Positions 20,307 to 26,068 of a stretch of DNA of 64,000 bases are shown here, one piece after another. Every line of letters begins with the position of its first letter. The first letter of the stretch is position 1. Origin of the DNA: a virus. The stretch is from positions 1 to 64,000 of the IMG/VR virus record IMGVR_UViG_3300042561_000572; one strand, 5' to 3'. A program made the translations under genes and the position numbers. The notes beneath the pieces are model-generated. The model did not search any database. It was not told where the DNA came from and saw nothing but the letters and a program-made list of their open reading frames with translations.

Positions 20307-21185
20307 TTAGCTTAAAGCATCAGCAAGCGCTTCATCAAGATTGACAAAGCTTTGGTTCATAATACCATTAGCAGTACCGCTATCATTAATATGACACCAT
20401 TCAAAATTATAATAGCCACCATCAACATAAGCACTAACCCCATCTGTCAGAAAAGGAGAGTCATGAACAATAGATTGCCAATGAATCCTTTCAACATAGA
20501 CATCCCTATGTAAGCATCTAGTCAACATAGAGCTAGGGAATACAGTGGCAGTCCACCCATCAATCCTACCACTATTAAACAAACGGTGAATTAAACACTC
20601 AAAGTTGTTTAATGTCTCTTGAGTCACTTCATTAGTAACTCTATCCAACAACACAGACTTAGCAAGTCTAATTAAAGACTTAGAGAAAGGCTCAGGTCTA
20701 TTGTCATCTTCCATGAAATCATTGTGTGATTCATAGCCAAAGAAACAATTAGGAAAAGGAAGATCAGTGTACAAAAACTCCAAATCACCGTCATCATCTC
20801 CACCATTAGCATAGTTGTTAGTAGTAGTTTCAGGATTAGACCAACCACCTGTCAGATACAATTCAATCTCATTGGTCTCTTTGAAAATCCTCCATTGAAT
20901 GTAATGATCAGGGTGATAACCTAATGCCAATCTAGAATCATTCTCCCAATCAGAAGTGGGTTTACAACCAGCAAGCCAAGTAGCTTGTCTAGCCAAATGT
21001 GGTGGAAAGTTACACATATGAGAACAAAGAAGTGTACCCTCTTCACCAGTTACTGAATCTCTAACATCAATCAAGCTGTCAAAAACATCACTAGCTGAAG
21101 TGATGTTGATCATGTCATTATACTCTTGATCAGGAGTATTTACATTAGAAGCAAGGACAAAGCGGCGTGTAGTAACATAAGACAT
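20307..21185 (-). CDS. Acidic hypothetical protein
   Basis: 292-aa ORF. Confidence 0.8.
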   Translation of the reverse strand: MSYVTTRRFVLASNVNTPDQEYNDMINITSASDVFDSLIDVRDSVTGEEGTLLCSHMCNFPPHLARQATWLAGCKPTSDWENDSRLALGYHPDHYIQWRIFKETNEIELYLTGGWSNPETTTNNYANGGDDDGDLEFLYTDLPFPNCFFGYESHNDFMEDDNRPEPFSKSLIRLAKSVLLDRVTNEVTQETLNNFECLIHRLFNSGRIDGWTATVFPSSMLTRCLHRDVYVERIHWQSIVHDSPFLTDGVSAYVDGGYYNFEWCHINDSGTANGIMNQSFVNLDEALADALS

Positions 21186-21306: not shown

Positions 21307-21945
21307 TTAATGTTGTCTAGGATAGTTTAAAATCCACTCTTTAAAGTCACTCCAATCCTCTTTATCTTTAACAAGACATCTATCAATGATGTCATTATCA
21401 TCATACTGCTCAAGCATAGAATAGCCCAAGTCAACAAGCCTAATAACACATCTTCCATTTACCTCTGTCAACATAATGTTGTTGTATAACCCGTCAACAT
21501 TATTACCTTCAACCTTTAACACACATGGTTGTCTTTTAATGTCTCCATGAGTCCAGCCAGACTCCCACAATTGCTGTAATTGTTCTTCAGCAACTTCAAT
21601 AGCTACTGTAATCTCCTCAACTGTAAAAGCAGTTGGCAAACATGGAAATAATCTTTCCATCATAATCAAATCACCAATGTCTTGCACAGGAATATGCTCC
21701 TTTATCTTAACAACCAAGTCATTAAAACTATTGGCCCATTGTAATGACAACACTTCTGCTAGCACATCACCATCTTTAAATGTACTCCAAACAGCACCAC
21801 CACAAGTCTCAATAGACTTAACAACTGTAACATCATTCAAAGCATACACACTGCCTTGAAAACCACTAGCTAATAGTTTAGCTTCAGGTAAAAATTCCAA
21901 TACAACTTGTTGGATATTAGACATATTACAAATAACTAACTGCAT
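21307..21945 (-). CDS. Protein kinase (Ser/Thr kinase-like fold)
   Basis: LASGFQGSVY Gly loop, VVK, HGDIK catalytic loop, NIM, LVDLG. Confidence 0.9.
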   Translation of the reverse strand: MQLVICNMSNIQQVVLEFLPEAKLLASGFQGSVYALNDVTVVKSIETCGGAVWSTFKDGDVLAEVLSLQWANSFNDLVVKIKEHIPVQDIGDLIMMERLFPCLPTAFTVEEITVAIEVAEEQLQQLWESGWTHGDIKRQPCVLKVEGNNVDGLYNNIMLTEVNGRCVIRLVDLGYSMLEQYDDNDIIDRCLVKDKEDWSDFKEWILNYPRQH

Positions 21946-21989
21946 TTATATATTGTGAGTTTATGCAGTTTATACTCCTAAATAAAAGG

Positions 21990-22560
21990 GCTGAAGGCAG
22001 CCACATTTATCTAGTTATGATCATTTATTTATACTGGTTGTAACTCTCCAGATATCTTATTTAGTTGTATATTTAATTGTGTATTTAATTTGTATGTAGT
22101 AAACAACATCTTTTAAAATCAACTAAGAGAATGACCAGTCTTTCAGGCCACATGGTTATTGTTATTGATGGTATGAGGACCAACAACTACAGATTCAATA
22201 ACATTTAAGGAAAACGCTAAGTAACCCCTTTACTATTTCTCTTCTTAAGGATGAAGGAAAGCCACATTATTGCCTTTCTACTACTTGCGTTGGGACTATC
22301 AAGACTTTTAGATGCATTGCACTAGACTGTCACTCTATACATTCTAAAAGGTTCTCAAAGAGAAGCCTAAAAGGGCTTGTTAGGTAATAACAAGATAGTA
22401 GTTACAATAAGAGGTGACTCTCATTGGTGTAGTATTAGGGATTCTTTGTACTCATGCATAGTCCTACAGTCATCTAGCAATAACAAGGCGGTTAATCTTA
22501 TTACAGTACTATCTAGATAACATCTATACATGGGTCCTGCCAATTATCACTTGCAGTTTA
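21990..22560 (-). ncRNA. Candidate large (~570 nt) structured ncRNA
   Basis: ORF-free, bounded by conserved hairpin elements, many stems and a 5'/3' long-range pairing. Confidence 0.6.
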
Positions 22561-22605
22561 TATATTGTTAATTAAAAGGGCCATAGAATAGGCCCAATTA
22601 ACTAA

Positions 22606-22968
22606 TTAGTTATCATCATACCAATCAATGCCTTCACCATCATCTTGTTCTAAGAAAGAAAGATGTTGTTCAACCTTCTTGTCATAGAAAACTTGTGGAA
22701 TTGGAAAGCCCAACAGTTTATTCAACTTAGCTCCAATCTTCCAAGCTAGAGATTCGTCAGACCAATCCTTACCTTGTCTAAAGGCAAACATATGACCTAC
22801 TTCATGCAAAGTAGAACAAAACATGTCCATCCTACTTGTTGCAATGGTAGAGATGTAAATATAATCCTTACCAAGCAGTTGCATATAATGACTGTCTTCT
22901 GGCCCATAAACCAAAGTAAAGTTATAGCCAGAAGCAAGAGATTCATCCATTGTATTGAAATAAGACAT
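22606..22968 (-). CDS. HExxH zinc metallopeptidase-like protein (ImmA/IrrE-like)
   Basis: STLHEVGH...DESLAW. Confidence 0.7.
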   Translation of the reverse strand: MSYFNTMDESLASGYNFTLVYGPEDSHYMQLLGKDYIYISTIATSRMDMFCSTLHEVGHMFAFRQGKDWSDESLAWKIGAKLNKLLGFPIPQVFYDKKVEQHLSFLEQDDGEGIDWYDDN

Positions 22969-23173
22969 TGTATTTACCTAGCACTTTTGAGTTTTGATTT
23001 AAGTTTGTGCTAAATAAAAGGGCCTCTTACTTAGGCTGTTGGTTATAGTATAAATATAGGGATAGGGAGCAAAGAGACTCAAACATAGAGTTAGTTCCAC
23101 ACCAACTGAATGCCATATGTTTAGAGTATCTCCAATCCAAATAAAAGGGCCAATTAAGACCCTTTTATTTTAG

Positions 23174-23590
23174 TTATAGACCACGTTCAGCCATTTGCTG
23201 AACAAGGAAATTAGATAAGAAATCCAATTGATCTTTCACAATTAGATTGTCTTCTTGAACCTTTTTAGCAGCATCAAAGCTGTTAAGTAGATTCTGAGCA
23301 GAAGCAAAGTTAGTCTTCACTTGCTCAATGACAAAAGACTCTGCATCAGCCTTAGCTTTAGCAGAAGTAACAGCCTTTTCAAGTTCTACAAGTCTATCAG
23401 TTGAAGCAACATGAACTGCTTTGAATTGATCAGCAAGAGCCAAAGCATCAGCCAATTTCTTAGCCTCTGCCTCCTTAGCTTCTTGTTCTGCTTGAGCAGC
23501 CAATGTATCAGCTTCAGCCTTTGCTTTAACAGCATTAGCGTTAGCAATGAGCTGGTCAAGAAGAGCAGCAGGTGTTAATGTAGTAGACAT
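23174..23590 (-). CDS. Ala-rich coiled-coil protein, paralog 1
   Basis: Closely similar to 24077-24490; probable start MSTTLTP. Confidence 0.8.
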   Translation of the reverse strand: MSTTLTPAALLDQLIANANAVKAKAEADTLAAQAEQEAKEAEAKKLADALALADQFKAVHVASTDRLVELEKAVTSAKAKADAESFVIEQVKTNFASAQNLLNSFDAAKKVQEDNLIVKDQLDFLSNFLVQQMAERGL

Positions 23591-23671
23591 GAGTTTCATT
23601 TATAGTGAGAGGGTAAAGTAAATTCTCACTTAAATAAAAGGGTCATAGAATAGACCCTTTTATTTATTTAG

Positions 23672-24001
23672 TTATAGAAGACCCAACTTACGTTGTTCAG
23701 CTTCCATTGCAATAATCATCTGATCAATTGCAGCATTACCAGCAACTAGATCAGGCATTGTTGCCTTAGCAGCAACAAGCTTTTTATTGCTCTCAGTAAC
23801 AGCCAAGAAAGCAGCAGTTGCTTTCTCTTGTTCTGCCCTGATTTGCATGTTGTAAGCTTCATACTCAGCCTGCTTCTTAGCCATAACTTCCATTTTATCA
23901 GCCTTAGCCTTTGAAGCCTGCATTTCTGCAAGTTGCTCAGGTGTGGGTTGATAGCTAGGAGCTACAGTCTTAGAAGGAAACAACCAAGAAAAGATAGACA
24001 T
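23672..24001 (-). CDS. Ala-rich coiled-coil protein, distant paralog
   Basis: TPEQLAEM..AKA and C-terminal RKLGLL resemble its neighbours. Confidence 0.75.
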   Translation of the reverse strand: MSIFSWLFPSKTVAPSYQPTPEQLAEMQASKAKADKMEVMAKKQAEYEAYNMQIRAEQEKATAAFLAVTESNKKLVAAKATMPDLVAGNAAIDQMIIAMEAEQRKLGLL

Positions 24002-24076
24002 GAGTTTCATTTAACCTGGTGAATAAGAGATCCAGATAAATAAAAGGGCCAAATTAATGACCCTTTTATTTATTAG

Positions 24077-24490
24077 TTATAGACCTCTAGACTTCATCTG
24101 ATCTACCAAGAAATTAGACAAGAAGTCCAATTGATCTTTAGTAGCAAGATTAGCTTCTTGCACTGCTTTTGCTTCATCAAATGAATTGAGAAGCTGTTGA
24201 GCAGAAGCAAAGTTAGACTTCACTTGTTCAACTACAAACACTTCAGCATCAGCTTTAACCTTTGCTTCAGTAGCAGCTTTTTCAAGCTCTACAAGTCTAT
24301 CAACTGATGCCTTGTGTAGAGGCTCAAACTGATCAGCCAAAAGCAATGCATCAGACAGTTTCTTGTCTTCAGCAGCTTTAGCCTCAGCCTTAGCTTTCAG
24401 GTCAGCAGCCTCTTGTTCTGCTTTTGCTTTAGCAGCATTAGCATTAGAGATCAACTGGGCCAAAAGTTCAGAAGGTGTTAGTACAGACAT
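24077..24490 (-). CDS. Ala-rich coiled-coil protein, paralog 2
   Basis: GGAG RBS, start MSVLTP; shares DRLVELEKA and KDQLDFLSNFLV with 23174-23590. Confidence 0.8.
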   Translation of the reverse strand: MSVLTPSELLAQLISNANAAKAKAEQEAADLKAKAEAKAAEDKKLSDALLLADQFEPLHKASVDRLVELEKAATEAKVKADAEVFVVEQVKSNFASAQQLLNSFDEAKAVQEANLATKDQLDFLSNFLVDQMKSRGL

Positions 24491-24558
24491 TTCATTCTCC
24501 AGGGTGTAAAGTATTTCCCTAAGTAAAAGGGTCAATTAAGACCACAATTACTTACTAT

Positions 24559-24879
24559 CTATTTAGATAGAAGATCAATCCACTTGTCTGCATTAGGTAC
24601 TTGACCCTTTGCATAACAATGTAAAACTGCATTAATACAGTTTATACAATTAATAGGATAATCTGGATCTCTGATAGACCAGTTCCTATTAATGTGGATG
24701 ATCAATTCTTCACACCAAGTGACATACATTGCTGCTTTAAGCTCAACATTTTCATGTTGAGGAAGCAGATTTGCAAATCCCTGGAATTTAGAATGACATT
24801 GAAGCTTATCTGAAACTGCCCTTAGAATGAGTCTAGAGGAGTAGATAAAGTTCTTTGTTTTCTTAGTTGAATTGAACAT
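24559..24879 (-). CDS. Hypothetical protein
   Basis: 106-aa ORF. Confidence 0.7.
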   Translation of the reverse strand: MFNSTKKTKNFIYSSRLILRAVSDKLQCHSKFQGFANLLPQHENVELKAAMYVTWCEELIIHINRNWSIRDPDYPINCINCINAVLHCYAKGQVPNADKWIDLLSK

Positions 24880-24956
24880 GTTTTTCTTTATTTATCTACG
24901 GTCATAGGTTATACACATAGATAAATAAAAGGGCCATAGAATAGACCCTTTTAATT

Positions 24957-25403
24957 TTATCCTGTATAAAACTCACCAAACTCTTTAGTCAAGAGTTTAT
25001 GAGAGATCTGAAGCAAAGGCTCCCAGGACAATGATTTGTCCCAAAGAACCATTTGCATATGATCTTTAAGCATGGGAATTCCATGCTGACCATATTGATG
25101 CCAATCTCTATGATCAGCATTAAAACGGCCCCAAACATTCTTGTAAATGCAAATATCATCCACAAGAACCTCCCCAATAGGAGGTAAAATGCAGGCAAAT
25201 TTGCCTTGTAAGACTTTTGCGATATTAATAGCATTAGCCTTACTGCCACAATAAATTGTGACATCTTTGCCTTCTTGACCACTCTTGCCAACTTTGTAGT
25301 TGACATTAAGAGTTGCCAAAAACTGGCCAATCCTCTTACCTTCTTGAGTATGAAGATGAAGTTTCCAGCCACAATTGACAGAATGTTGTTTGAATTCTTT
25401 CAT
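24957..25403 (-). CDS. Stand-alone phospho-Ser/Thr lyase-like protein (LanKC/LanL N-terminal, OspF family)
   Basis: GWKLHL...YK...GKDVTIY...DD....VWGRF parallels GWKIHVS..FK..GKFITIYP..SD..YxRYG. Confidence 0.7.
   Translation of the reverse strand: MKEFKQHSVNCGWKLHLHTQEGKRIGQFLATLNVNYKVGKSGQEGKDVTIYCGSKANAINIAKVLQGKFACILPPIGEVLVDDICIYKNVWGRFNADHRDWHQYGQHGIPMLKDHMQMVLWDKSLSWEPLLQISHKLLTKEFGEFYTG

Positions 25404-25735: not shown

Positions 25736-26068
<333 letters not shown>

Follow-up and report, generated by a model that had tools for sequence, protein, structure and literature searches.

A stand-alone OspF/LanKC-type phospholyase-like protein and a minimal protein kinase in an early-type gene arm of an IMG/VR virus

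Two predicted enzymes in a minus-strand arm

We analyzed a 64,000-nucleotide stretch of DNA (the window), which comprises positions 1 to 64,000 of the 94,155-bp IMG/VR virus record IMGVR_UViG_3300042561_000572. The record has a CheckV completeness of 56%, a low GC content (approximately 0.32), five tRNAs, and giant open reading frames (ORFs) of 4,035 and 1,546 amino acids (aa). Our subject is an early-type arm of genes on the minus strand. A first-pass annotation of this arm had proposed that one gene encodes a lyase acting on phosphoserine and phosphothreonine (pSer/pThr), with motifs of the LanKC lyase domain and of OspF, that a minimal protein kinase lies about 3 kb downstream, and that the two could form a protein-dehydration system. 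In transcription order, the arm consists of a 57-aa gene, the 148-aa lyase, a 106-aa ORF, three Ala-rich proteins (152, 112, and 141 aa), a protein of 120 aa with an HEVGH motif, 660 bp free of ORFs, the kinase (212 aa), two further ORFs (292 and 430 aa), and the 1,546-aa ORF. The lyase had been taken for the first gene of the arm, but the conserved 57-aa gene (25851-26024, minus strand) comes before it. The kinase ORF is 3,011 bp downstream of the lyase ORF on the same strand, and five other genes, the ORF-free stretch, and many hairpin/T-run elements lie between them. The two features under study are as follows.

24957..25403, minus strand: stand-alone pSer/pThr lyase-like protein, 148 aa, of the OspF/SpvC/RamC_N superfamily; predicted catalytic residues K14, H16, K37, K46, D83, and R93
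21307..21945, minus strand: minimal Ser/Thr-type protein kinase, 212 aa, without the distal C-lobe; G-loop 28-33, K43, E64, H133-G-D135, N156, and D172-L-G

We defined the lyase family by an exhaustive HMMER search seeded with four sequences, the window protein and three close relatives found in a first search. The family contains at least 235 cluster representatives (clusters at 50% identity) at E ≤ 1e-3, and 98 at E ≤ 1e-10. Among 150 listed representatives, 6 are no longer than 160 aa, 76 are 161 to 350 aa, 13 are 351 to 1,000 aa, and 55 exceed 1,000 aa and carry the lyase as an embedded domain. Some of the short forms from bacteria and metagenome-assembled genomes (MAGs; P0091, P0096, P0099, P0131, and P0180) have an N-terminal extension of roughly 30 to 100 aa with a recurring P-[DNG]-W-[LI] motif.

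The family profile matches crystal chains of LanKC synthetases (8car at 1.2e-3, and also 9wop, 9ugq, 8sao, and 8w7a), always in the N-terminal lyase region. We discarded the top PDB matches of the wider profile, designed Cake and Bagel propellers, as repeat artifacts arising from the string TIYVGS (per-domain E-values of 50 to 100). The Pfam model of the LanKC lyase region, RamC_N (PF25816), matches 19 of 30 short family members at E ≤ 1, with a best E-value of 5.7e-6; the best-scoring member, P0086, reaches 25.7 bits against a cutoff of 27 bits, and all members tested fall below this gathering threshold. By these profile scores, the family is a clade related to but distinct from RamC_N that current Pfam models miss. 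Several searches returned less. When the PDB was searched by profile and by phmmer, the four-sequence alignment gave only noise, as did the kinase; direct Pfam and PHROGs searches with the lyase or the kinase gave nothing usable, the IMG/VR scan found no close relatives, the Pfam family VRP3 (PF03536) matched neither the window lyase nor 30 family members, and a search of control genomes for RamC_N yielded no LanKC sequence.

Comparisons in the ESM Atlas point to the same superfamily. By features, the window lyase is nearest to OspF/VRP3 (0.87) and RamC_N clusters (range 0.85 to 0.87), and by structure it reaches template-modeling (TM) scores of 0.55 to 0.65 over approximately 120 residues to LanKC and to lyase-kinase proteins, using the Atlas's own model. 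Our AlphaFold model from the four-sequence alignment was poor, with a predicted local distance difference test (pLDDT) score of 48, and a wide structure search of the PDB with it led to generic ferredoxin-like folds.

The catalytic residues of characterized phospholyases can be placed on the window protein, in which GWKLH occupies residues 12 to 16. In a phmmer alignment to the LanKC chain 8w7a, GWKIH pairs with GWKIH, and the lysine of an FK pair follows the first lysine by 29 residues, equal to the spacing from K65/H67 to K94 in ThurKC. These ThurKC residues have been equated with K104/H106 and K136 of SpvC, and mutation has shown that K65, H67, and K94 are needed for full dehydration (PMC10604976). 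A weak hhalign alignment (E = 0.18) to SpvC, with the reference taken from pSLT, pairs K14 with K104, H16 with H106, K37 with K136, T49 with T156, and Y51 with Y158. By order and spacing alone (10 residues, compared with 11 in ThurKC), D83 and R93 correspond to ThurKC D152/R163 and SpvC D201/R213. Across 149 divergent domains, conservation is 97% for K14, H16, and K37, 98% for K46, 99% for T49, 96% for Y51, 93% for D83, and 98% for R93, which is the pattern expected of a working elimination site; SpvC R220 has no conserved counterpart in these domains. The lyase motifs noted in the first pass thus reflect a family-level homology far beyond chance, with conserved catalytic residues, and the 148-aa protein is a genuine and probably active member of the OspF/SpvC/LanKC-lyase superfamily.

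The kinase was also borne out, with its core residues present and its fold confidently predicted. It belongs to a family for which we collected 59 homologues of 190 to 226 aa. Pfam Pkinase (PF00069) does not match the window kinase, and the family has no sequence match in Pfam or the PDB apart from Pkinase at E = 0.15 in 1 of 26 relatives. The AlphaFold model is confident (pLDDT 89.8, predicted TM score 0.85) and has the bilobal kinase fold; Foldseek matches it only to Ser/Thr kinases, such as CDK12, PIM1, and MK2 (probability 1.0), and its BFVD matches are viral Ser/Thr kinases, one of them from Bacillus phage Curly. In 26 aligned sequences, K43 and N156 are invariant, H133, D135, D172, and G174 are each present in 24, an acidic residue (E/D) occupies position 64 in 24, and the G-loop is conserved in 24 to 26. 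The distal C-lobe is missing, and an insert of approximately 15 residues separates HGDLKR from the NN motif. Kinases lacking the C-lobe, some of them stand-alone, have been described for polyvalent proteins (PMC5512222). We found no fused forms of this kinase family, which is weak evidence. Two members of alignment A2, P0061 and P0062, have lost H133, D135, D172, and G174 together, plus parts of the G-loop, and are probable pseudokinases.

Lyase and kinase in other genomes

In phage genomes, the lyase domain is embedded in uninterrupted ORFs of 1,671 to 4,062 aa. One of these giant ORFs carries LPD23 and a methyltransferase, another family member contains an InPase domain, and a giant protein from Planctomycetia includes a methyltransferase. 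From these hallmarks, we read the giant lyase-bearing ORFs as polyvalent proteins, which are believed to be injected by phages and conjugative elements together with their DNA (PMC5512222; PMC7824862). The flanks of the lyase domain within the giant proteins are not conserved, such that its neighbors appear shuffled. Neither a lyase nor an OspF-like domain is mentioned in the paper that describes polyvalent proteins (PMC5512222), and our literature search found no paper on phage phosphothreonine lyases and no phage or mobile-element clade of the lyase superfamily. In two complete phage genomes of approximately 66 kb (L017, 8291-20476; L018, 8477-19141), a single polyvalent ORF of 3,555 to 4,062 aa accounts for 16 to 18% of the genome length, and almost nothing in these ORFs matches Pfam or PHROGs.

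Among GTDB genomes, the domain occurs in the candidate phyla radiation (CPR; Saccharibacteria, Levyibacteriota, Peregrinibacteria, and Peribacteria), Planctomycetia, Vitreimonas, and Burkholderiales; it often lies close to the C-terminus, in proteins of 300 to 2,400 aa. It is conspicuously frequent in CPR MAGs (L021-L032), where it is often C-terminal in otherwise unannotated proteins.

We asked how often the two enzymes occur together. For the kinase, we searched kinase-bearing relatives, consisting of 13 metagenome loci and one IMG/VR contig, with up to 10 kb on either side where the contig allowed. No lyase was found within the fetched DNA of these relatives (L001, L002, L005, and L008 among them) or anywhere in the whole 107-kb kinase-bearing record G001; as a positive control, the same search recovers the window lyase at 1.8e-58. 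Conversely, five lyase-bearing IMG/VR genomes (G002-G006), four of which are at least 92% complete, contain neither an A2-type kinase nor Pfam Pkinase, and the kinase family is absent from the 150 listed lyase-family representatives. A regular expression for kinase motifs found nothing in 67 lyase-bearing multidomain proteins, which is weak evidence because the window kinase itself would escape that expression. The idea of a coupled system in which the kinase marks and the lyase eliminates therefore fails to find support, as the two genes do not co-occur beyond the window wherever this could be tested.

Gene order places the two enzymes in different parts of the arm. The divergent arm, and within it the order of a paralog of the 292-aa protein followed by the kinase, is conserved in relatives. 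By comparison, the segment from 22606 to 25403 has no match in the syntenic relatives, and L008 has other small ORFs at that position, which indicates that the lyase occupies a variable accessory slot and that the kinase is a core gene. Without a conserved pairing, the two genes look like independent early weapons against the host.

Neighboring genes and intergenic elements

The other features of the interval between and around the two enzymes are listed here in transcription order.

25851..26024, minus strand: conserved Lys-rich 57-aa gene that precedes the lyase; 82 to 84% identity in L001, L002, and L008
25430..25459, minus strand: hairpin with a GC stem and a T-run, immediately upstream of the lyase gene
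24926..24953, minus strand: hairpin and T-run, immediately downstream of the lyase stop codon
24559..24879, minus strand: 106-aa ORF with 5 Cys and unassigned function, directly downstream of the lyase
24077..24535, minus strand: Ala-rich helical protein p152, paralog of p141; likely true start ATG at 24490
23672..24010, minus strand: Ala-rich 112-aa protein with marginal likeness to p141 and p152 (E = 0.08)
23174..23599, minus strand: Ala-rich helical protein p141, paralog of p152
22606..22968, minus strand: minimal HExxH (HEVGH) metallopeptidase-like protein of 120 aa, from a common phage family
21946..22605, no strand assigned: 660 bp without an ORF, separating the peptidase gene from the kinase gene; bounding hairpins at 22578-22595 and 21989-22002

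The Lys-rich gene lies upstream of the lyase in the window and directly after the kinase in L001 (10727-10891) and L002, which indicates that the gene order of the early arm has been rearranged. The first-pass annotation had placed an HExxH peptidase and three Ala-rich paralogs between lyase and kinase, and both the peptidase-like gene and the Ala-rich ORFs are present. The paralogy is clear for p152 and p141 (70.6% identity over 136 aa) and marginal for the 112-aa protein, which has a homologue at 33% identity in L001. None of the Ala-rich proteins contains Cys. The HEVGH protein has no match in Pfam or PHROGs, and its predicted structure resembles Peptidase_M78, the MPTase-PolyVal domain of ArdC, and SprT. 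The 106-aa ORF and the ORF-free stretch had been absent from that first account. The 106-aa ORF has 10 Ser/Thr in addition to its Cys residues; it has no relative in the IMG/VR scan, and Pfam and PHROGs searches with it gave nothing usable. One candidate origin of the ORF-free stretch, decay of the 292-aa paralog located ahead of the kinase in relatives, was rejected because the two share no similarity. In a blastn search, the region had no match among GenBank phages.

Terminator-like elements, each a GC hairpin followed by a T-run, are abundant on the minus strand between 18800 and 26400, where we counted 15 compared with 4.1 expected. Almost all genes of the arm are bordered by them, and the lyase gene has one at each end. 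Because these elements bracket each gene, the genes look like separate cassettes rather than an obvious operon. In the same interval and on the same strand, the motif GCCCTTTTAT occurs 23 times compared with 5.5 expected. The 292-aa protein encoded downstream of the kinase in the window (20307-21185) has a paralog, approximately 42 to 45% identical, directly upstream of the kinase in relatives; family members lie at 9013-9900 in L001 and at 133-1056 and 2456-3298 in L005, and the window has only the downstream copy.

Possible roles of the lyase and kinase

Animal and plant pathogens use phosphothreonine lyases as type III effectors, and lanthipeptide synthetases contain them as domains; the phage lyase resembles both. 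Its best sequence and profile match is the N-terminal lyase of class III LanKC enzymes (RamC_N; ThurKC, PDB 8SAM-8SAP), with which it shares GWK[IL]H, a catalytic Lys approximately 23 to 29 residues further on, and a conserved Asp...Arg pair. It differs in that LanKC is fused to a kinase and a cyclase and modifies a leader-bearing precursor, whereas the phage lyase is a stand-alone protein of 148 aa or a polyvalent module, has no evident leader-peptide substrate, and lacks the ThurKC insertions around K108 and K117. With OspF, SpvC, and HopAI1 (VRP3, type III effectors), it shares the character of a stand-alone, effector-type enzyme delivered by an invader, and its K-x-H, catalytic Lys, and T-x-Y motifs align with those of OspF/SpvC in the weak hhalign comparison. 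Those effectors are approximately 90 residues longer and have an N-terminal secretion or mitogen-activated protein kinase (MAPK) docking region that the phage lyase lacks, and they act on eukaryotic MAPK, whereas the phage target would be bacterial. Class V lanthipeptide and thioamitide pathways also encode the kinase and the phospholyase as separate proteins, LanK and LanY (PMC10604976). In these pathways, the kinase is APH-like (PF01636) and the lyase belongs to the HopA1 family (PF17914), and both lie within a cluster for a peptide made on ribosomes and modified after its translation (RiPP) that includes a precursor and a cyclase, and none of these features is present here; in the Pfam search, neither APH nor HopA1 matched the window lyase or kinase.

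The set of genes in the arm also recalls polyvalent proteins (Iyer et al. 2017, PMC5512222), since giant proteins with LPD23, InPase, or methyltransferase domains include relatives of the lyase, and the window has both a kinase with a truncated C-lobe and a minimal zincin that resembles MPTase-PolyVal. In polyvalent proteins such domains are joined, whereas in the window they are separate small genes, and the slot looks as if a set of polyvalent-type effector domains had been unbundled. The kinase can further be compared with T7 gp0.7, a Ser/Thr kinase that the phage expresses early and that targets host proteins (PMC13645617), although we detected no sequence relationship between them and the window kinase has a minimal fold of the eukaryotic protein kinase type, closest to PIM1 and CDK-type kinases.

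We consider the identities of the two enzymes, taken on their own, highly likely. On balance, we lean toward the reading that the interval is a variable early-gene slot carrying independent, stand-alone effector cassettes. By homology, K14 of the lyase would bind the phosphate, K37 would take the alpha-proton, H16 would protonate the departing phosphate, and K46, D83, and R93 would complete the site. The enzyme would thereby beta-eliminate phosphate from pSer/pThr of proteins in the infected cell, leaving dehydroalanine or dehydrobutyrine, products that would not be open to rephosphorylation, such that the change would be irreversible. Because most lyase-bearing phages have no detectable kinase, host kinases are the most likely source of the phosphosites. 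The substrates would then most likely be proteins phosphorylated by host Ser/Thr kinases, for example, the activation loop of Hanks-type signaling or defense kinases. OspF and SpvC act on kinase activation loops, OspF on those of MAPK. Host or prophage Ser/Thr kinases participate in anti-phage defense, as in the cases of Stk2 and the KKP module (PMC11341870). Together, the involvement of host kinases in defense and the activation-loop targets of OspF and SpvC favor irreversible inactivation of host kinase signaling. We therefore propose, by analogy, that the lyase may be an early host-takeover or counter-defense effector. Action against host kinase-based processes, which the first-pass annotation gave as its second option, seems to fit the data better than a coupled system does. 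The 212-aa kinase is a core early gene that is conserved separately in this phage group. It probably works independently, phosphorylating host proteins by itself in the manner of the T7 kinase; the latter provides an example of a phage kinase that disarms defenses alone (PMC13645617).

Several observations weigh against this account. The window lyase itself scores only 11.3 bits (E = 0.25) against RamC_N, far under the 27-bit gathering threshold, and the equivalence of D83 and R93 is drawn without a significant alignment. Divergent kinases in the lyase-bearing genomes could evade the Pkinase and A2-profile searches, and the pairing comparison leaves out the contigs of the closest relatives of the lyase (70 to 85% identical) and of the kinase (76 to 87%). 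What the comparisons show is the homology, the conservation of the catalytic residues, the fold of the kinase, the domain architectures, and the absence of a conserved pairing; the proposed enzymatic activity, substrates, and biological role are inferred.

The main alternative is a coupled two-enzyme dehydration, in which the phage kinase would phosphorylate host Ser/Thr and the lyase would then eliminate the phosphate to leave permanent dehydroalanine or dehydrobutyrine. The two genes are on the same strand of the same early arm, 3 kb apart, LanKC and LanL fuse the same two activities, and split kinase/lyase pairs are known from class V lanthipeptides (PMC10604976); in addition, the ESM Atlas contains bacterial lyase-kinase proteins without a cyclase. 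We nevertheless consider coupling unlikely. L001, L002, L005, L008, and all of G001 have the kinase but not the lyase, and G002-G006 and 67 multidomain proteins have the lyase but no detectable kinase. In addition, five genes, an ORF-free stretch, and many hairpin/T-run elements intervene, and the lyase occupies a variable slot, in contrast to the kinase, which is a core gene. Because the contigs of the closest relatives fall outside the comparison, the two enzymes may still cooperate within a narrow lineage.

A different activity of the lyase-like fold, either on a non-protein phosphoester or as a mere phospho-binding or regulatory module, would be compatible with its small size (148 aa, compared with 241 aa for SpvC) and with the lack of a conserved counterpart of SpvC R220. 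The complete K-x-H / K / D / R set is conserved at 93 to 98% in 149 divergent domains, and every characterized superfamily member acts on pSer/pThr in peptides (PMC10604976), which together make such a function quite improbable. As the closest characterized homologues (RamC_N/LanKC) are RiPP enzymes, the lyase and kinase could instead dehydrate a phage peptide or small protein, for which the candidates would be the Ala-rich proteins or the 106-aa ORF, which lies directly downstream of the lyase and has 5 Cys and 10 Ser/Thr. As the first pass had noted, no cyclase is visible; we found no LanC-like cyclase (LANC_like domain) in the 94-kb record, which is 56% complete. The neighboring small genes are not found alongside the lyase domain elsewhere, and in other phages the domain sits in giant polyvalent proteins among unrelated neighbors, unlike a RiPP cluster. 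With no cyclase, Ala-rich proteins that are free of Cys, and no conserved neighborhood, a RiPP-like role is very unlikely indeed.

It is possible, and we offer it tentatively as a proposal we rate below an even chance, that OspF-like lyases are widespread, previously unrecognized effectors of phages and mobile elements, carried in injected polyvalent proteins or encoded by early stand-alone genes, that irreversibly erase host Ser/Thr-kinase signaling. If so, they would be a bacterial-virus counterpart of Shigella OspF acting against MAP kinases, for example, by beta-elimination of the activation-loop phosphothreonine in Hanks-type defense or stress kinases. Apart from that proposal, the family stands as a new clade, in phages and mobile elements, of an enzyme superfamily that is already known. 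As a distinct clade of at least 235 clusters (50% identity), it would extend phospholyase chemistry to the conflict between phages and bacteria, and it adds a catalytic domain to the polyvalent-protein repertoire. The window protein, as a very small (148 aa) natural phospholyase, may serve as a tool enzyme, and its clade is a candidate for how phages could neutralize kinase-based signaling or defense in their hosts.

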